The notes below the pieces were generated by a model, which made no database searches, was not told the origin of the DNA, and was given only the letters and a program-made list of their open reading frames with translations. A DNA stretch of 64,000 nt from Eledone cirrhosa (taxonomy: Eukaryota), in NCBI GenBank assembly GCA_964016885.1, contig OZ024763.1, forward strand, positions 2,294,001 through 2,358,000. Direction: 5' to 3'. Below, piece by piece: positions 2,111 through 62,926 of the stretch (position 1 is its first letter; every line of letters starts with the position of its first letter). Both the position numbers and the translations under genes were made by a program.

Positions 2111-2512
2111 TCCTTTGTCAGTGTTGAACAAAAGGGCAACGATGGTTGCTAGACACTGTTCGGCTTAATTCGGGCTGTTTGTTTACAAACAAACTGAACA
2201 TTATAATAAATGTTATGTGTGTGCATGTATGTATGTACATATACATACTTGCATATATATATATATGGGTATATACATATTTTATATATATATGGGTATA
2301 TACATACTTTATATATATATATAAAGTATATATAAAGTATGTATATATGGATATATACATACTTTTATATATATATATATATATATATGTAGGAGGTGAG
2401 TTTTATTGTAGTACAATAAAGCAATGCAGATATCGGATAAGAAGCACTCTACAGTTTGTAGGACTGGAGTATGCATAATATAAGATCAAAAGATGGTTAA
2501 AGGAGTTCCATA

Positions 2513-2583
2513 TATTTTATTATGCGCATTTCAAAAACAAACATCATCATGCAATAATATTTGTGTTTTCATCAGATAAAACA
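2513..2583 (-). ncRNA. Type I hammerhead ribozyme motif
   Basis: Reverse complement of 2929-2999. Confidence 0.8.
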
Positions 2584-2928
2584 GGAGAACATGATATGAA
2601 GGCTAAAAAACACTTGTGGATAGTGCAGTTTTAAATCAACATATGAAAAGTGGTTTTAGATTGATGTGTGATATTGGGAAAAAATATTTTATTTAGAGAG
2701 GGGGGGGAAGGATGAAAAGGGAAGGAGATGAGAGGGAGAGATGGGTGATAGAGAGAAAGAGATAGTTTTTATATAAAAACTATCTCTTTCTCTCTATCAC
2801 CCATCTCTCCCTCTCATCTCCTTCCCTTTTCATCCTTTCCCCCCCCCCCTCTCTAAAACCACTTTTCATATGTTGATTTAAAACTGCACTATCCACAAGT
2901 GTTTTTTAGCCTTCATATCATGTTCTCC

Positions 2929-2999
2929 TGTTTTATCTGATGAAAACACAAATATTATTGCATGATGATGTTTGTTTTTGAAATGCGCATAATAAAATA
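2929..2999 (+). ncRNA. Type I hammerhead ribozyme motif
   Basis: tgttttat-CTGATGA-[aaacacaaatattatt gcat gatgatgtttgttttt]-GAAA-TGCGCA-TA-ataaaata: 8-bp stem I, long stem II, palindromic stem III. Confidence 0.8.
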
Positions 3000-3129
3000 T
3001 ATGGAACTCCTTTAACCATCTTTTGATCTTATATTATATATATATATATATATACACACAATCCTTATCAAGCCCTCTTAAGATCTTTGTATTTACTATT
3101 ACTAATATATATATTATATATACTTTGAT

Positions 3130-5755: not shown

Positions 5756-5794
<39 letters not shown>

Positions 5795-5797
<3 letters not shown>

Positions 5798-5878
5798 CAA
5801 TTATTTGTTGAGTGCTTTATATCAGTTATAAAAATATTTGCTTGTTGTATCCCAACAATTTAAATAGAACTTCTACAT
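5795..5878 (+). mobile_element. 3' tail fragment of PLE-like family 4
   Basis: Closely similar to 7776-7860; flanked by (TA)n. Confidence 0.65.
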
Positions 5879-5890
5879 ATATATATATAT

Positions 5891-6065
5891 AATATATAAG
5901 ATCAAAAGATGGTTAAAGGAGTTCCATGTATTTTATTAAATTTTATTAAATCCTTTAACCATCTTTTGATCTTATATATTATGTATACTCCAGTCCTACA
6001 AACTGTAGAGTGCTTCTTATCCGATATCTGCATTGCTTTATTGTACTACAATAAAACTCACCTCC

Positions 6066-7401: not shown

Positions 7402-7444
7402 TACGATATTAAATAAATGGAAACTATATTTATAAAACCATATT

Positions 7445-7510
7445 TATTTCATTATATATATTTCAGGGATATCATATTAACAATATGTTATGCCTTCCTC
7501 AGACAAAATA
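7445..7510 (-). ncRNA. Type I hammerhead ribozyme motif (mirror copy)
   Basis: Near-exact reverse complement of 7663-7728. Confidence 0.7.
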
Positions 7511-7662
7511 CAATATAGACAGTTTTATAGATAAATAGATTTGACATACCGTAACAACATCGACTTGTATTTGAAAAGTTGAATTGGCAGTTCAACTTTT
7601 CAAATACAAGTCGATGTTGTACGGTATGTCGAATCTATTTATCTATAAAACTGTCTATATTG

Positions 7663-7728
7663 TATTTTGTCTGAGGAAGGCATAGCATATTGTTAATATG
7701 ATATCCCTGAAATATATATAATGAAATA
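7663..7728 (+). ncRNA. Type I hammerhead ribozyme motif
   Basis: tattttgt-CTGAGGA-[aggcatagcatatt gtt aatatgatatccct]-GAAA-TATATA-TA-atgaaata. Confidence 0.75.
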
Positions 7729-7861
7729 AATATGGTTTTATAAATATAGTTTCCATTTATTTAATATCGTAAATATACTCCAAATACTTGTCGAGTGCTT
7801 TTATATCAGTTATAAATATTTACTCGTTGTTAACCCAACAATTTAAATATAACTTTCCATG

Positions 7862-10280: not shown

Positions 10281-10517
10281 TTGTGTATATATATTTACTA
10301 TTATATATGTTTACTAATATGTGTATACTATTGTATACATCTACTGCTATATATATATTTACTATGTATATATATTTACTATGTATATATATTCACTATG
10401 TATATATATTTACTATGTATATATTTACTATGTATATATATTTACTATGTATATATATTTACTATGTATATATATTTACTATGTATATATATTCACTATA
10501 TATATATATTTACTATG

Positions 10518-10890
10518 ATACATATTTCAGAGGTACTGAGTAAACTTCAACAGTACGTCCTCTTCAGATAAAATAAGATGATGCAGGACATACCCTGACA
10601 TAGTAGATGGTTAAGATTCAGTTATGGTAGTGATTCAGTCATCTTAACCATCTACCATGTCAGGGTATGTCATGCATCATCTTATTTTATCTGAAGAGGA
10701 CGTACTGTAGAAGTTTACTCAGTACCTCTGAAATATGTATAATAAAATATACTTGATCACAAGAATATCTATTTTGTTAATATTTTGAATTAATATTAAT
10801 AACTCCAGAAAACCATAACTGTTGAGTGCTTCCAATCTATTGTAAAACTCATTATTTGATTTATTCATTGAACCTTGTTTAACCTTTAAA
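10518..10890 (+). mobile_element. Fold-back PLE-like element family 3
   Basis: Inverted arms about 10518-10618 / 10640-10740 plus tail; inserted in a TA-derived minisatellite. Confidence 0.75.
10683..10749 (+). ncRNA. Type I hammerhead ribozyme motif
   Basis: tattttat-CTGAAGA-ggacgtactg..cagtacctct-GAAA-TATGTA-TA-ataaaata (perfect 8-bp stem I); truncated mirror copy at 10517-10575 (-). Confidence 0.8.
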
Positions 10891-16110: not shown

Positions 16111-16450
16111 GACACCACATGATTTTGTATTGAAAACTTTGAAAGTAGGTTTATAAATATGAATTTTCGTAAGATTTTTGTAGTTGTCTCTGTGGCCTAA
16201 CGGTAAGTACTAGAGACATTGGTCTTGGGTTCAATCCTGGTCAAGAGGTACATGTAATCTTTTTTCAGTTTTTATTTTACATCCCATAGAAAAAACTGAA
16301 AATGGTTTACCACGAACCCTACTCCCAACCAGGATTGAACTTCAGACCGGGATCACCACTGTCTATGATTCTTCCAACAACTACAAAAGTATAATGAAAA
16401 TTAATAATTATAAGCTTACTTTCAAAATCAAAGTTAAAAAGATGTCGTCC
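16108..16450. mobile_element. Old fold-back element with inverted tRNA-like boxes
   Basis: Nested inverted blocks TTTGAAAGTAGGTTTATAA/TTATAAGCTTACTTTCAAA, TTTTGTAGTTG/CAACTACAAAA, GTTCAATCCTGGT/ACCAGGATTGAAC, TTTTCAGTTTTT/AAAAACTGAAAA. Confidence 0.6.
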
Positions 16451-17801: not shown

Positions 17802-17816
17802 ATATATATATATATA

Positions 17817-18006
17817 ATTGTTTCTACTTTAGACACAAGGCCAGCAATTACCCAGTTCATTACTGGTACTTTATTTTATCGACCCCGTAAGGATGAAAGG
17901 CAAAGTTAACCTCGGCGGGATTTGAACTCAGATCGTAAAGGGACGTAATTCTATGCTGGAAAGCATGGCATCCGACCCTCTATCGATACTGCCAATCCAC
18001 CGCCCT
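17817..18006 (-). mobile_element. tRNA-derived SINE family C (Nin-domain-like)
   Basis: Minus: TGGCAGTATCG A box, GAGTTCAAATCC B box, TTGCCTTTCATCCTTACGGGGTCGATAAAATAAAGTACCAG. Confidence 0.85.
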
Positions 18007-18217
18007 GGAAAAGTGGTAAGGAACCAGATGGACCATAACGCAACAAAGTACTCAATATTTAGGGTAGTAGAGTGGGTAATAGGAACGAGTAGGACCCCGA
18101 CGGCTGAGCTCAAGCCGTTTCGACGGCTAATTCTGGACTAAAAATTTTTTTTTTTTTTTAGTCCAGAATTAGCCGTCGAAACGGCTTGAGCTCAGCCGTC
18201 GGGGTCCTACTCGTTCC

Positions 18218-23955: not shown

Positions 23956-24164
23956 AGGAATGTTTATACTTAGAGTAGAATCTATACCCAGTAGTTGTAG
24001 TTATATTGTCGTTTTAACAAATTACTTGAGATTTTGAACTGAACTCACTGACTCTGAGGACTCCCAGTGGTTTCTGGACCCACGATTGAAAACCATTTGT
24101 TCAGGGCCTCATAATCTGCTTGCATCTCACAATCCACTGGGCTCTCAATTTGTTTGGGGTGGTT

Positions 24165-25140
24165 TTTCAATCCACTGGAGTCTCACATCCTTCTGGGGCC
24201 ACACAGCCCACTGGAGTTTAACATCTTTCAGGGACCACACAACAGACTAAGGCCTCACATCTTTCAAGGACCTCACAACAGACTAAGGCCTCACATCTTT
24301 CAGGGACCACACAACAGACTAAGGCTTCACATCTTTCAGGGACCTCACAACCCACTGAAGTCTCACATCCTTCAGGGACCACACAACCTTATGGGGCCAC
24401 ACAGCCCACTGGAGTTTAACATCTTTCAGGGACCACACAACAGACTAAGGCTTCACATCTTTCAGGGACCTCACAACCCACTGAAGTCTCACATCCTTCA
24501 GGGACCACACAACCTTATGGGGCCACACAGCCCACTGGAGTTTAACATCTTTCAGGGACCACACAACAGACTAAGGCTTCACATCTTTCAGGGACCTCAC
24601 AACCCACTGAAGTCTCACGTCCTTCAGGGACCACACAACCTTATGGGGCCACACAGCCCACTGGAGTTTAACATCTTTCAGGGACCACACAACAGACTAA
24701 GGCCTCACATCTTTCAGGGACCTCACAACCCACTGAAGTCTCACATCCTTCAGGGACCACATAACAGACTAAGGCTTCACATCTTTCAGGGACCTCACAA
24801 CCCACTGAAGTCTCACATCCTTCAGGGACCACACAACAGACTAAGGCTTCACATCTTTGAGGGACCTCACAACCCACTGAAGTCTCACATCCTTCTGGGG
24901 CCACACAGCCCACTGGAGTTTAACATCTTTCAGGGACCACACAACAGACTAAGGCCTCACATCTTTCAGGGACCACACAACAGACTAAGGCCTCACATCT
25001 TTCAGGGACCTCACAACCCACTGAAGTCTCACATCCTTCAGGGACCACACAACAGACTAAGGCCTCACATCTTTCAGGGACCTCACAACCCACTGAAGTC
25101 TCATGTCCTTCAGGGACCTACCAACCTTCTGGGGCTTCAC
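24165..25140. repeat. 36-bp minisatellite with 126-bp higher-order unit
   Basis: CACATCTTTCAGGGACCACACAAC.. units; open frame 24154..25182 (GPH repeats). Confidence 0.9.
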
Positions 25141-25304
25141 AGGAGGAGGAGATGGTGGTGGTGGTGGTGGTGGTGGTGGTAGAATGAAGTGAGACAACAA
25201 TGTTAGTGGCTAGATCCAAACAGATGTGGTCAATAAGTGAGTGACATAATGTGACTGGCTGCAACACAACTTTAGCAACTTTCATTCATGGTAACTTGAT
25301 AGTG

Positions 25305-32052: not shown

Positions 32053-32335
32053 CAGGTAATCCAGTTAGAGGTTGTGAGTACTCCGTATTGTAGATAGTTT
32101 TAGCGTACGGCGTTGTTTGACTCAACAAGAGGTTTCCTTAGGTGCGACTGTAAGAGTTCTCGGGAGTTCCTGTGTAAGTTAATAGCGTATTTAAAATTGA
32201 GTGACAGAACTTCAAGTGATTAGCAGTCTTTAGACACCCTAATCAATGAAACAATTGTTAATACTGTAAATAAAACCCTTTTGTACTGTTGACCATGTTA
32301 TTCTTCACTCTTTCACTATATATTCTATATATTCA

Positions 32336-32500
32336 TTCTTGAGAAATTATCAGGAATCACCTGATTCCTGATGATTTCTCAAGAAGGAAACAGTTCTAGT
32401 CCTGTAGAATCTTATCAATATTAAAACCTTTATACTCTGCTATGTATTGAGTACCTTACTTACTGTGGTTACCTCCGATTCAACCCGGAATAACTTACCT
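32336..32500 (+). mobile_element. PLE-like element family 6 with short 5' inverted arm
   Basis: Inverted 32336-32359 / 32362-32385; tail recurs inverted at 58212-58290; fragment at 32915-32955. Confidence 0.7.
32363..32411 (+). ncRNA. Type I hammerhead ribozyme motif with true stem III
   Basis: gattc-CTGATGA-tttc tcaa gaag-GAAA-cag ttctagtc ctg-TA-gaatc; predicted GUA cleavage after 32406. Confidence 0.8.
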
Positions 32501-32822: not shown

Positions 32823-32974
32823 ATATATATATGCTCACACAACCACATGCACGCGTGGAAAAATGGACGTTAAAAACGATGAGGATGATGATATATATAC
32901 ATCATCATTTATATGAAATAGTTCTAGTCCTGTAGAAGCCGTTTCTATATTAAATATATATATATATATAACGA

Positions 32975-33107
32975 AGGAGTTGTGGTAAGGAACCAGATGG
33001 ACCATAACGCACCAGAGTACTCAATACTTAGGGTAGTAGAGTGGGTAATAGGAACAAGTATGACCCCGACGGCAGAGGTCAAGCCGTTTCGACGGCTAAT
33101 TCTGGAC
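32975..33107 (-). mobile_element. PLE-like family 5, long arm only
   Basis: Similar to 18007-18140. Confidence 0.7.
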
Positions 33108-34101: not shown

Positions 34102-34305
34102 GCGTATATATATATATATACACACATATATATATACACACACACACACATATATATATATATACACAAATATATATATATATATATATAGACACATATA
34201 CACACACACACATATATACACACATATATACACACACATATATGTACACACACACACACATATATATATACACACACACACACATATATATATACTATAT
34301 ATATA
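33130..34305. repeat. (GAT/GGT)n and (CA/TA)n microsatellites with a short unique island (33820-33990)
   Basis: Visible. Confidence 0.85.
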
Positions 34306-34422
34306 CCTCCCTTATTGCAGTTACACAAGCTATCAGCAACGGCTGGTTAACCAGTTTATTGAGGGATCCTTGATGTGGTCAGTCGACATACTAGAAATAG
34401 CAGCTACATTTCTCTTAATTTC

Positions 34423-34459
<37 letters not shown>

Positions 34460-34658
34460 CGGAAGAAATGTGGTAAGGAACCAGGTGGACCATAACGCAC
34501 CAAAGTACTCAATACTTAGGGTAGTAGAGTGGGTAATAGGAACAAGTATGACCCCGACGGCAGAGCTCAAGCCGTTTCGACGGCTAATTCTGGACTAATT
34601 CTTGTCCAGAATTAGCCGTCGAAACGGCTTGAGCTCAGCCGTCGGGGTCCTACTCGTT

Positions 34659-34662
<4 letters not shown>
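34460..34662 (-). mobile_element. Fold-back PLE-like family 5 with non-identical arms
   Basis: Long arm equals the 33.0-kb variant, short arm equals the 18.1-kb variant. Confidence 0.75.
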
Positions 34663-34729
<67 letters not shown>

Positions 34730-34847
34730 AGTGAACAACACAATATATAATAGCATATATATAGAGTAATGTAAATGTTAAAGGGTTAAAGTGTTTATAT
34801 TTATCTATAAACCTCCCATCATAATTTTATGTATCAACTTTTGTTAA

Positions 34848-35086
34848 CCTTTTAATATCTGCTGGAAATTGTCCCTGGTTCTATGATACAAAACAGCTTG
34901 TTTTAAAGTGTTTACATTTATTTAAAGAAACTTTTCATCATAATTTTATGTATAAACCTTTGTTAAGTTATGCTCCAAATATCCACTTAATGAGAAAGTT
35001 AGATATTAAATCCCTCTAAATTCTTGATTATTTTGTTTTGAAAATAAATGGCAGTGTTTTTCATTTGAAACATGTTAGGGAAAGGG
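34848..35086. mobile_element. Degenerate TTAA-flanked (piggyBac-type) MITE
   Basis: TTAA|CCTTTT..AAAGGG|TTAA ends; TIR short and imperfect. Confidence 0.4.
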
Positions 35087-36410: not shown

Positions 36411-36609
36411 AGGTCACAACTCCTGAAAATGATTGAGAAAGATTTTAATTTAAATAGAAACCATTTAAAATGGGGTACGTTTTGATTTATAGAACTATCG
36501 ACCTCCCAGGGGGTCAGGCCGATGTTGAAGTATATATATAGCATGTACTGCCCTACCCCACCTACTGCCATACATCTACCATGAGGACAGGCTGGAGTAT
36601 ACATCCAGT

Positions 36610-37840
36610 GAAGCACCCAGTCCACACTGTAGAGTGGTCATGTAGGTGTCACGACAAAAAGCACCCAGTCCACACTGTAGAGTGGTCATGTAGGTGTCAC
36701 GACAAAAAGCACCCAGTCCACACTGTAAAGTGGTCATGTAGGTGCCATGACAAAAAGCACCCAGTCCACACTGTAGAGTGGTCATGTAGGTGTCACGACA
36801 AAAAGCACCCAGTCCACACTGTAAAGTGGTCATGTAGGTGCCATGACAAAAAGCACCCAGTCCACACTGTAGAGTGGTCATGTAGGTGACACGACAAAGA
36901 GCACCCAGTCCACACTGTAAAGTGGTCATGTAGGTGTCACGACAAAAAGCACCCAGTCCACACTGTAAAGTGTTCACGTAGATGTCACGACAAAAAGCAC
37001 CCAGCCCACACTGTAAAGTGGTCATGTAGGTGGCATGACAAAAAGCACCCAGTCCACACTGTAAAGTGGTCATGTAGGTGTCACGACAAAAAGCACCCAG
37101 TTCACACTGTAAAGTGGTCATGTAGGTGTCACAACAAAAAGCACCCAGCCCACACTGTAAAGTGGTCATGTAGGTGGCATGACAAAAAGCACCCAGCCCA
37201 CACTGTAAAGTGGTCATGTAGGTGGCATGACAAAAAGCACCCAGTCCACACTGTAAAGTTGTCATGTAGGTGTCACGACAAAAAGCACCCAGCCCACACT
37301 GTAAAGTGGTCATGTAGGTGGCATGACAAAAAGCACCCAGTCCACACTGTAAAGTGGTCATGTAGGTGTTACGACAAAAAGCACCCAGTCCACACTGTAA
37401 AGTGGTCATGTAGGTGTCACGACAAAAAGCACCCAGTCCACACTGTAAAGTGGTCATGTAGGTGGCATGACAAAAAGCACCCAGTCCACACTGTAAAGTG
37501 GTCATGTAGGTGTTACGACAAAAAGCACCCAGTCCACACTGTAAAGTGGTCATGTAGGTGTCACGACAAAAAGCACCCAGTCCACACTGTAAAGTGGTCA
37601 TGTAGGTGCCACGACAAAAAGCACCCAGTCCACACTGTAAAGTGGTCATGTAGGTGCCACGACAAAAAGCACCCAGTCCACACTGTAAAGTGGTCATGTA
37701 GGTGACAACAAAGAGCATCCAGTCCACACTATAAGGTGGTCATGTAGGTGACACAACAAAGAGCACCCAGTCCACACTTGTCCCAACTTGTCCAACCCAT
37801 GCTACCATGAAAGAAATGGACATTAAACAGTGATGATCTT
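36610..37840 (+). repeat. 48-bp minisatellite (~24 copies) derived from SINE internal segment, ending in SINE tail
   Basis: GCACCCAGTCCACACTGTAAAGTGGTCATGTAGGTGTCACGACAAAAA; tail CCCATGCTACCATG..GGACATTAAACAGTGATG. Confidence 0.9.
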
Positions 37841-39767: not shown

Positions 39768-40446
39768 GACTTCTACCATTAAAAGAACTAGCAGAAAAAC
39801 CACCCTTTGGGTGGTTTTCTTGTAGCATGTGTAGTGTGTATTATATGCAAGTGTGTATTATATGCAAGTGTAGTGTGTATTATATGCAAGTATATATACA
39901 TGTAGATATGATACATCAAATAAAATCATAATTGACAATATACAATACATAGAAATTGAACGAAGACTGCGTTACACTGTCTCATTTAATCAGTAACGTG
40001 ATCCATGATACATTAAAAAAGACGATATTATATATAAACTGCATTAGGAGAAAATTAGTGACAGAAAATTAGTATGTTTAATTAAGCGATGGCAACTGGA
40101 AGTGTTGACATTTCAGAAATTTTAAAGAAGTGAATCTTTAAATAAACAAAATATATTTAATGAACAGCCTCGAAATTTAGTAGATAAATTATGTAATATT
40201 CATTCATTATTTATTCAAAGTAATCCAACTTATTTTACAAATGGGATAAAAATTAAAAAAACCGTACGCAGTCCTGCAGATCTTCCTTTGTTATAGTTTA
40301 GATGGTAGACTTCAAGTGTGAAAGCCATCAATGGATGTCTGATAGTGATGTTGATACTAACATATCAACTGTCATTCAGGTCAACAACATTTATCAATAT
40401 AACTCTTCAATTTTTCAATAAAACTATTGACCTATCTGTAAAATAT

Positions 40447-40527
40447 GTAGAGTGTCCCCCAAAAATGTATTCACACTTCAAAAGCATTCTTATAATAGCA
40501 TGTATACATTTTTGGGACTCTCTCTAC
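40447..40527. mobile_element. Tc1-type mini-MITE
   Basis: AGAGTGTCCCCCAAAAATGTAT / ATACATTTTTGGGACTCTCT TIRs. Confidence 0.6.
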
Positions 40528-40528
40528 A

Positions 40529-41085: not shown

Positions 41086-41258
41086 ATATAATATAATACA
41101 CACACACACACATATGTTTGTGTGTATATCTATATATATATATATGTGTGTATGCATATATATATATATATATACACACTCACACACACTTGTGTATGAG
41201 TGTATTATATATATATGAAGTAGTAAAACCTAACTTGTGTATGAGTGTATTATATATA

Positions 41259-41338
41259 TGAAGTAGTAAAACCTAACTTCTTCAATACACTTCACTACAC
41301 AGATTAATATATCTAATCAACCATTAAAGTGCCTTTTA

Positions 41339-41372
<34 letters not shown>

Positions 41373-41440
41373 TAAAAGGCACTTTAATGGTTGATTAGAT
41401 ATATTAATCTGTGTTGAAGAAGTTAGGTTTTACTACTTCA
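41259..41440. repeat. Palindrome with (TA)n centre
   Basis: TGAAGTAGTAAAACCTAACTTCTTCAA..GTGCCTTTTAAT (TA)n ATTAAAAGGCAC..TTGAAGAAGTTAGGTTTTACTACTTCA. Confidence 0.85.
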
Positions 41441-43595: not shown

Positions 43596-43710
43596 ACAGC
43601 TGATTCTAGACTGGAAATAGCTGTCGAAACAGCAAGAGCTCAGCTGTCGGGCCTCGACATTTTCCAATATAGTCATACTCTACTATCAAGAACTCTGCTA
43701 AATAATGGTC
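43596..43710 (+). mobile_element. Diverged relative of PLE-like family 5 (5'-truncated hammerhead)
   Basis: acagct..agctgtc-GAAA-cagc aagagctca gctg-TC-gggcc. Confidence 0.55.
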
Positions 43711-43828
43711 TTACTAGTTTAAAACTGGTATAATTTTAATGACTGACTGAATACACACTTGTGTTTTTCCCCCTTCCTTCCTCTTCTCACTCTTTATTTT
43801 TCTGTGTCATTCTTTATTTCTAACTCTA

Positions 43829-46694: not shown

Positions 46695-46898
46695 GCGAGG
46701 GAAAAGTGGTAAGGAACCAGGTGGACCATAACGCACCAAAGTACTCAATACTTAGGGTAGTAGAGTGGGTAATAGGAGTAAGTAAGACCCCGACGGCGGA
46801 GCTCAAGCCGTTTCGACGGCTAATTCTGTACTCAATTCTGTACAGAATTAGCCGTCGAAACGGCTTGAGCTCCGCCGTCGGGGTCTTACTTACTCCTA
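46695..46898 (-). mobile_element. Fold-back PLE-like family 5, third variant
   Basis: Both arms share private substitutions (GGAGTAAGTAAG, GGCGGAG, CTGTAC). Confidence 0.75.
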
Positions 46899-58211: not shown

Positions 58212-58322
58212 TAAGTTTATCCCAGTTTCAATTGGAGGAAACCACAGTAAGTAAGGTACTCAATACATAGCAGAGTATAAATATTTAATATCGTCCTTTA
58301 GAAGCCATTTCTATATTAAATA
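58212..58322 (-). mobile_element. PLE-like family 6 tail with inverted upstream piece
   Basis: 58212-58290 matches the reverse complement of 32418-32498; 58293-58322 matches 32927-32955 in + sense. Confidence 0.65.
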
Positions 58323-60760: not shown

Positions 60761-61138
60761 ATATAGATGATGATGATATACAGATAAACCTACCACTCAG
60801 TGGTAGGGTCTAAACCGTATAAAGAACTCAATGTAATCCGTTTATTTCTGAAGACGGTGGGTAGTGAAGACTATGCATTTTTTTCTTACTATGATATTTT
60901 GTAATATGTTTTACATAGATCAATAATTGAATGAACATTCAGAGAACTACCCCCGCCCCCCCAGAAACGATCGTAAAATAATGAGTTTTACTATGAATTA
61001 ACAGTTTTGTGTTTAATTTCATTGTTTTAATATTTCTCTCTCTATATATATAGTTAAATATTAGACAGGAACAAAAAACAGAGAAGCATTACAAATGGTA
61101 GTTTATTAGGTTCACGCTTTTGAAAGTGGGAGAGGGGG

Positions 61139-61166
61139 GACGTTTCGGGCATAAGCCCTTCATCAG
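61139..61166 (-). ncRNA. Minimal Penelope-type hammerhead core
   Basis: CTGATGA-AGGGC TTAT GCCC-GAAA-CG-TC; stem I does not pair locally; lies in (TA)n-flanked insert 61053-61222. Confidence 0.55.
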
Positions 61167-61411
61167 GAGAAAAGTGGGTAGGAAGTAGAGTTCCGCGGGT
61201 GTGTGGGGGAGTGATGGAAAGATATATATATATAAATATATATATACACACACACACACTTAGAAGTGTCAGCTGAAAAGTTCCTAGGCTGACCAAGACA
61301 CTCTCAAGAAATGACCAAATGAGGTTTATTTGTCAACATAGTCCCTCGAAAGTAACAACGCAGTTATTAAGAAGAGTTGAAATTAATGCACCTTGCCACA
61401 CCCTCTTTGTT

Positions 61412-61754
61412 ATCATCATTCATTTCATCATTTTACGTCCGCTTTTCCCTGCTTGCAAGGGTGGGACGGGAACTGATTCTGGCTTGATTTCTACAGCTGG
61501 ATGCCCTTCCTAACACCAACCTCATTTACAGTGAGTGCTGGGTGCTTTTTTGCCGTGGCACCTCCACGACCACTTTGCAGTGGAATGATAGGGACCCTAG
61601 TCCCTATCATCTCATTTCTACAGCTGAGTAAACTGGAGCAATGTGAAATAAAGTGTCTTGCTCAAGGAAACAACACATCACCCGGTCTGAGAATTAAACT
61701 CACAACCTTTCGATTGCAAGCCCAATGCTCTAACCACTAAGCCATGTGCCTCCA
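61412..61754 (-). mobile_element. SINE family A, full length
   Basis: Near-identical to 6253-6592. Confidence 0.9.
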
Positions 61755-61948
61755 TATATATATATATGTATTAATAAAAGATCTGAGGCCATAATCAGTT
61801 GATTCAGGTTTATTTAAAACTCCGTCATACATATTTCACTGAGGTCTATCAGTTAAGATAGAGGTGGAGGAGGCACTATATCACTTGTTTCAAACTATTC
61901 CATAGAAGAAATATTATTAATAGTGATATATATTCCCCCTCACCCTCC

Positions 61949-62926
61949 CACTGTAAAGTGGACGTGGAGTTGCCACAGAAAAAAGCACCCAGCCCACACT
62001 GTAAAGTGGACGTGGAGTTGCCACAGAAAAAAGCACCCAGCACTCATTGTAAAGTGGATGTGGAGGTGCCACAGAAAAAAAGCACCCAGCCCACACTGCA
62101 AAGTGGACGTGGAGGTGCCACTGAAAAAAGCACCCAGCCCACACTGTAAAGTGGACGTGGAGGTGCCACAGAAAAAAGCACCCAGCCCACACTGTAAAGT
62201 GGACGTGGAGGTGCCACAGAAAAAAAGCACCCAGCCCACACTGTAAAGTGGACGTGGAGGTGCCACAGAAAAAAAGCACCCAGCACTCACTGTAAAGTGG
62301 ACGTGGAGGTGCTACAGAAAAAAGCACCCAGCACTCACTGTAAAGTGGACGTGGAGGTGCCACAGAAAAAAGCACCCAGCCCACACTGTAAAGTGGACGT
62401 TGAGGTGCCACAGAAAAAAGCACCCAGCACACACTGTAAAGTGGACGTGGAGGTGCCACAGAAAAAAGCACCCAGCCCACACTGTAAAGTGGACGTGGAG
62501 GTGCCACAGAAAAAAAGCACCCAGCACTCACTGTAAAGTGGACGTGGAGGTGCTACAGAAAAAAGCACCCAGCACTCACTGTAAAGTGGACGTGGAGGTG
62601 CCACAGAAAAAAGCACCCAGCCCACACTGTAAAGTGGACGTTGAGGTGCCACAGAAAAAAGCACCCAGCACACACTGTAAAGTGGACGTGGAGGTGCCAC
62701 AGAAAAAAGCACCCAGCCCACACTGTAAAGTGGACGTGGAGGTGCCACAGAAAAAAGCACCCAGCCCACACTGTAAAGTGGACGTGGAGGTGCCACAGAA
62801 AAAAGCACCCAGCACTCACTGTAAAGTGGACGTGGAGGTCAGCCGACTGGACGCTGCCCACAACAGGACAACCTGTCTAACCCATGCTAGCGTGGAAGAA
62901 TGGACGTAAAACGGTGATGAGGATGA
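61949..62926 (+). repeat. 48-49-bp SINE-derived minisatellite (~18 copies) ending in retroelement tail
   Basis: CACTGTAAAGTGGACGTGGAGGTGCCACAGAAAAAAGCACCCAGCCCA; tail CCCATGCTAGCGTGGAAGAATGGACGTAAAACGGTGATG. Confidence 0.9.

Follow-up and report, generated by a model that had tools for sequence, protein, structure and literature searches.

The window, the whole 64,000-nucleotide stretch of DNA analysed here, is dense in repeats, rich in microsatellites and without an evident gene, and at 34459–34660 it holds a head-to-head hairpin that sits within (TA)n. The interspersed repeats of the window have an octopod-like appearance. A 33-nt (AT)n target tract (34426–34458) lies on the left of the hairpin and a (TA)31 target tract (34661–34722) on its right. 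The 137-nt long arm (34459–34595, minus strand) consists of an 80-nt tail (34459–34538, minus strand), which is confined to this arm, and a body (34539–34595, minus strand). An 8-nt centre spacer, TAATTCTT (34596–34603), separates it from the 57-nt short arm (34604–34660, plus strand), which has no tail. Within the tail, positions 34503–34511 read TGAGTACTT, a motif common to the one-sided tails of other palindromic families, and the first letters of the right TA tract also fit the start of the tail (TAT). The centre spacer echoes TAATTCT of the arm itself and is therefore likely to be slipped or templated filler from the point where two cDNA ends joined. Computed as DNA, the hairpin has a stability of −67 kcal/mol, and the single arms fold no better than shuffled sequences (z 0.12 to 0.76).

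Three further young copies of this family lie in the window, namely a single tail-bearing arm of variant Y within (TA)n at 33.0 kb (32971–33107, minus strand), a concordant X/X palindrome, single-tailed and with an A/T run at its centre, at 18.1 kb (18008–18217), and a concordant Z/Z palindrome of a third variant, with one tail and within (TA)n, at 46.7 kb (46695–46896). The last of these, like an old relative near 43600–43700, had been overlooked by the first-pass annotation. Palindromes make up three of the four young copies, and two of the three have concordant arms. All three carry a one-sided tail and their short arms all end at one common base, and the three centres are unlike one another, being a filler that resembles the 34.5-kb spacer in the 46.7-kb copy and an A/T run in the 18.1-kb copy. 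Specifically, in the 18.1-kb centre (18141–18159) a long T run comes after an A run, which looks as though A residues had been added to the two cDNA ends prior to joining. (TA)n flanks both sides of the copies at 34.5, 33.0 and 46.7 kb and one side of the 18.1-kb copy, which has no TA tract on the other side because a separate interspersed repeat (17815–18007) adjoins its tail tip. The four copies are found among 65 tracts of at least 10 TA units, and the window contains no tandem units of the family. In the old relative (43600–43740), GCCGT/ACGGC/GCCGT has become GCTGT/ACAGC/GCTGT, which keeps two alternative 5-bp stems; an imperfect hairpin with G-U-type pairs precedes it and may be the natural 5′ stem of the RNA.

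Penelope-like features of the family

In a self-comparison, the window yields roughly a dozen local palindromes. Head-to-head palindromes of several families lie at 1848–2231, 2478–3034, 5891–5980, 7403–7770, 10514–10744 and 32332–32389. In most of them, CTGANGA...GAAA patterns point outward and the tail, on one side only, contains GAGT(A/G)C(T/C)T, a motif that may be the binding site of the enzyme. The outward patterns are found at 2005/2073, 2575/2937, 7502/7671, 10567/10691 and 32368. The motif HGAGTRCYT occurs 13 times in the window against 4.2 ± 2.0 expected, an enrichment that is inflated because the motif was picked after these elements had been seen, and 11 of the 13 occurrences are followed by a TA tract within 35–75 nt, compared with 6% of background positions. 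It stands in the one-sided extensions of both the 34.5-kb family and the families with hammerhead patterns. Among 11 palindromes, it is present on one side in eight, on both sides in none and on neither side in three, a count that leaves out the palindromes at 40446–40528 (5 of 28 sites mismatched) and 16138–16426 (66% alike). Since the tail motif is shared with families that have outward hammerhead cores, the sense of the long arm is the minus strand and the arms stand head-to-head, which bears out the earlier claim that they are joined at their 5′ ends.

A pattern search finds no CTGANGA hammerhead core in the 34.5-kb family. Its long-arm body holds GAAAC, a 5-bp stem and GTC, corresponding to the 3′ half of a hammerhead-like fold; covariation for this arrangement is weak (one compensatory change in one old copy, with 76 of 500 shuffles scoring as high), and an alternative hairpin scores equally. 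No Rfam family reaches its gathering score in the window, and 77 sub-threshold Rfam matches around the locus, most of which fall on simple repeats and the hairpin itself, were rejected. Among the stop-to-stop frames of at least 85 aa in the window, no ORF for a reverse transcriptase or GIY-YIG domain is apparent, a Pfam scan of six such frames gave no relevant match, and no autonomous partner of the family was found among the window ORFs. Exact-pattern scans of viral, metagenome and genome contigs returned 0 loci. A MITE or palindromic DNA transposon was rejected in view of the one-sided tail, the solo arm at 33.0 kb, and the varying centres and truncations.

A Penelope-like unit comprises an inverted 5′-truncated copy with a tail at one end, and Naiads target (TA)n (PMC8557442). 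The inverted units of Penelope/Poseidon, Neptune and Naiad share with the 34.5-kb family the head-to-head inverted 5′-truncated copy (PMC8557442, PMC3846280), the tail at one end and a simple-repeat target with an unreadable duplication, and Naiads also share the preference for (TA)n and go without a canonical hammerhead (PMC8557442, PMC3846280). The family differs from the Penelope-like units described there in its length of about 137 nt, its lack of an ORF, its nearly fixed 5′ end and its tail of 80 nt, compared with 30–40 in the published units; unlike the hammerhead-bearing Penelope/Poseidon and Neptune, it has the 3′ half of a hammerhead-like fold only. Opposite-strand pairs of minimal hammerheads 100–700 bp apart are also on record (PMC4209133). 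Non-LTR retrozymes (bioRxiv 10.64898/2026.07.22.740005) are likewise short, ORF-less, related to pLTRs and moved in trans, but they form tandem arrays with a full hammerhead, whereas the 34.5-kb family is dispersed, solo or inverted, and without the CTGANGA core. From these sequence features we infer that the family is probably a non-autonomous Penelope-like end moved in trans; the (TA)n target and the lack of a canonical hammerhead would be compatible with the Naiad clade.

Arm discordance in the hairpin and in public runs

The two arms of the 34.5-kb hairpin differ at 3 of 57 sites, 34544/34655, 34549/34650 and 34562/34637. Arm comparison, together with reads at 99% likeness for the long-arm body, assigns that body to variant Y (A34544, T34549 and A34562 on the plus strand), and arm comparison assigns the short arm to variant X (A34637, C34650 and C34655 on the plus strand). 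As the first-pass annotation had noticed, the long arm has the allele of the 33.0-kb copy at all three sites, the short arm agrees with each arm of the 18.1-kb palindrome at 57 of 57 nt, and the three sites co-segregate, with the Y alleles all on the long arm and the X alleles on the short arm. Against the 33.0-kb copy, the long arm shows one further difference in these 57 sites and three in the last 124; it differs from that copy at 34566, four bases past the last diagnostic site, and at two tail sites. Two of the three discordant sites are non-CpG transversions, and two are triallelic within the family.

Three mismatches in 57 nt are an ordinary number, with P(≥3) = 0.096 relative to the pooled arm divergence of eight other palindromes in the window (17 of 889 sites, 1.9%, leaving out the same two palindromes as the tail count). 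Under a simple model, the chance that every change matches the exact allele of another copy is about 3e-7 at 2% divergence, and about 1e-5 when one CpG-type site is given a tenfold rate. It is the identity of the alleles at three sites, not the number of mismatches, that goes beyond chance. Additionally, the long arm groups with the 33.0-kb Y copy at the tail tip as well (34459 and 34469), and thus no mosaic is visible in mid-arm. Arms of different variants and a Y-like tail tip therefore need two templates, unless the locus changed later; the earlier statement that the hairpin was not made by simple self-copying holds given a correct assembly and no later conversion. Over the 57 nt, each arm is free of private changes relative to its own variant; the insertion therefore looks young, and little time appears to have elapsed. 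Site 34485 does not track the variants, which implies that sequence exchange among copies or recurrent change does occur.

Outside the assembly, the evidence comes from public runs, namely the RAD runs X21 and X23 and the run X19. RAD sampling reaches few loci and carries amplification bias, and its read counts are therefore not copy numbers. At 88% likeness, 31,420 and 33,447 contigs match the stretch 34250–34950, as do about 31,000 reads of each RAD run; these totals include a second repeat contained in the 701 nt. Among the rows listed for X21 at this likeness (40 of 140), G occurs at 34544 in 3863 of 12,368 reads and at 34549 in 4035 of 12,333 reads, and T occurs at 34562 in 6861 of 12,395 reads. 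Of some 12,000 reads, exact X and exact Y each make up only a few hundred. When the likeness is raised to 99%, the Y arm collects about 200 reads in each RAD run and the X arm about 258 in X21 and 186 in X23, with 152 and 112 reads fitting two places, and 34485 is the sole single-site variant among those listed. Because reads at 99% likeness fit each arm, X and Y are real family haplotypes present elsewhere, each a small part of a family of many variants. Reads that pass from the long arm into (TA)n at 34536 number 139 (X21) and 136 (X23) at 99% likeness and 3681 and 3551 at 88%; since they exit the Y arm there, the tail-less end is a family-wide boundary that is not confined to X.

In X19 at 99% likeness, two of the 13 joints listed, 34574>34612 (depth 44.8) and 34585>34619 (depth 13.5), come from other loci and must extend over a Y site to the left of the junction and over the X site 34637 to its right. 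This reading is taken from the position table rather than from printed sequence; each contig offers a single mirrored site, the shorter side has 27 letters, and the layout can reveal Y-left/X-right cases only. Concordant junctions would appear as opposite-strand joints, of which none are listed and which were possibly dropped, so that the discordant joints have no denominator; the two contigs are suggestive of further discordant hairpins and give no rate. The long arm stops inside the tail in 7 of the 13 X19 joints listed, junction positions vary widely among other loci, and 31-mers that include part of the spacer reach multi-copy depth in X19 (225–1650). RAD reads end at 34589 and 34610, which are AATT sites inside the arms. 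No contig among those listed in any run examined spans the 34.5-kb hairpin, and its left flank has zero depth at 99% likeness. As the locus is never seen whole and this flank is not covered, the runs may represent another individual or species.

Proposed dual priming and the alternatives to it

On balance we lean, without great confidence, towards "dual priming", an insertion in which the two nicked strands primed cDNA synthesis on separate RNAs, likely through a Penelope-like enzyme. In such an event, the enzyme would nick both strands within the (TA)n tract; one nicked end would prime at the tail tip and yield the long arm, and the other would prime at the tail base, where the RNA would read TAT like the target, and yield the short arm. 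The free ends of the two strands would copy two different RNAs, one Y and one X, and the two cDNA ends would then be joined via a short filler. Concordant palindromes would arise when both RNAs came from one source or a single RNA was copied twice. The common stop of the three short arms fits an independent start site, since nothing would make a fold-back copy end at that base. Against dual priming, two of three palindromes are concordant despite the rarity of exact X and exact Y, which indicates that the RNAs are not drawn randomly from all variants.

Priming on two RNAs from both strands had been proposed by the first-pass annotation, and its both-strand part has biochemical precedent in a Penelope-like protein: purified PAc (Poseidon of Anolis) cuts and extends both strands of AT-rich DNA (PMC11167929). 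The tail is delimited by the two sites at which PAc starts reverse transcription, and PAc is predicted to form a dimer (PMC11167929). Both-strand cleavage and extension, tail-bounding starts and the predicted dimer would all be shared with the mechanism proposed here, whereas the available part of that work does not address the use of one versus two RNAs or explain the inverted copy (PMC11167929). For two templates in one event, the evidence consists of one assembled locus and two suggestive contigs. On the other hand, the lack of two-tailed palindromes (0 of 11) and the joints that stop in the tail (7 of 13 in X19) count against dual priming; priming twice on a single RNA would explain both no less well. 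At 5790–5880 and 1230–1330, insertions made up of a tail only lie between TA tracts; one of another family, near 5790, begins at about its tail base, and this too counts against dual priming.

A possible though unlikely alternative is an insertion with identical arms, from one RNA primed twice or from fold-back, in which ectopic gene conversion, cDNA-templated repair of a break in the hairpin, or recombination of two insertions in the same (TA)n tract later replaced the sequence of one arm. A single 19-nt tract spans all three sites, so that one conversion of this length would account for the whole discordance, donors are abundant (over 31,000 contigs per run on the 701-nt stretch), and concordance is the majority state, in two of three palindromes. 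Very stable hairpins are break-prone, and this one, at −67 kcal/mol, is very stable. With four copies among the 65 TA tracts, two hits in one tract are possible. Against later overwriting, arms free of private changes point to a young insertion that has had little time, the rates being a rough assumption, and repair inside a hairpin should make the arms alike rather than different. The 33.0-kb copy in particular, the nearest Y donor, is an unlikely source in view of its differences at 34566 and the two tail sites.

We consider it quite improbable that the discordance is an artefact of assembly, in which short-read polishing or haplotype mixing swapped one arm for reads of other copies. Hairpins between long TA tracts are poorly covered, foreign tail-less reads would be expected to map to the short arm, and the locus is not seen whole in any run. 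Nevertheless, in the 18.1- and the 46.7-kb palindrome each pair of arms carries the variant proper to that copy, which shows that the assembly preserves locus-specific sequence; errors arising at random would not land on three polymorphic sites, and two short-read contigs from other loci have the same kind of mismatch.

It seems very doubtful that two units of one tandem transcript were copied, or that a source copy already discordant passed on the hairpin as a whole. Penelope-like transcripts come from tandem or partial-tandem loci (PMC11167929, PMC8557442), the spacer 31-mers stand at multi-copy depth, and the strict one-tail rule suggests a single coupled complex. Opposed to this are the centres, which differ in all three palindromes of the family, the wide variation of junctions among loci, the existence of Y-type tail-less arms and a window without a tandem unit of the family. 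Finally, three independent point mutations after a self-copied insertion are exceedingly improbable and were rejected: three changes in 57 sites lie within the spread of older palindromes and two of the sites are triallelic, but all three would have to reach the exact alleles of one variant, at a chance of about 3e-7 to 1e-5 at 2% divergence, which excludes this reading unless mutation at these sites were faster than next to them by orders of magnitude.

Returning to dual priming, the idea of priming on two RNAs is not new. For L1, "dual priming" on two mRNAs was proposed in 2010 and was left unvalidated and not separable from twin priming (PMC2837659). L1 twin and dual priming resemble the present proposal in that both nicks prime cDNA, with outward products and an internal junction, and differ in that L1 priming takes place on poly(A) and the two L1 cDNAs reportedly have only part of the sequence in common, with an overlap sized like the target-site duplication (PMC2837659; PMC12016303). 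Unlike such L1 pairs, the 34.5-kb hairpin has its entire 57-nt body copied twice. Head-to-head Penelope palindromes have been attributed to self-priming (PMC3846280), which predicts identical arms, and the origin of the Penelope-like inverted copy and one-sided tail has been named an open question (PMC8557442). Searches of the main texts of the openly accessible literature turned up no case in which arms of different subfamilies were used to argue that Penelope-like elements insert from two RNAs. The layout of the insertion is thus already known, and the discordance of the arms is a useful new handle. Self-priming, or twin priming on one RNA, yields identical arms, whereas two RNAs yield a steady share of whole-arm discordance; discordant arms can therefore separate dual from twin priming, unlike the 2010 L1 data (PMC2837659). 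With a young family of thousands of short palindromes and several three-site variants, the question of mechanism becomes countable, and one locus, which does not settle it, shows the test.

More broadly, and as a tentative proposal that we regard as more doubtful than sound, Penelope-like elements might insert as a rule through two enzymes in an asymmetric pair. Each enzyme would carry an RNA of its own, and the two would start at the tail tip and at the tail base, respectively. The inverted copy would then be a second retrotransposition event at the same cut, and discordant hairpins would be both genomic proof of dual priming and a route for subfamilies to meet and recombine.

Other palindromes and repeats

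Arm mismatches in the other palindromic families have too few close copies in the window to be classed as diagnostic. In the 2478–3034 palindrome, a 35-nt stretch (2661–2695) bounded by a TTTAGA direct repeat is found only in the left arm, and the arms otherwise differ at 1 of 244 sites; the stretch could be a template skip or a second case of discordant templates. The palindrome at 41216–41440 is centred on a TA tract and includes 12 nt that just one of its arms possesses, with a third partial copy at 41216–41236. The family represented at 32355–32480, 58212–58291 and 32915–32954 has a complete minimal hammerhead pattern at 32368, and a single core base sets its short inverted arm apart (TGATAA vs TGATGA). 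A solo CTGATGAAGGGCTTATGCCCGAAAC at 61135–61170 (minus strand) has a canonical-looking hammerhead core with stem II. Minisatellite arrays occupy 61948–62825, 24115–25179 and 36579–37739, and the one at 62 kb has a 48-nt unit derived from an interspersed repeat that is also present at 61525–61582.
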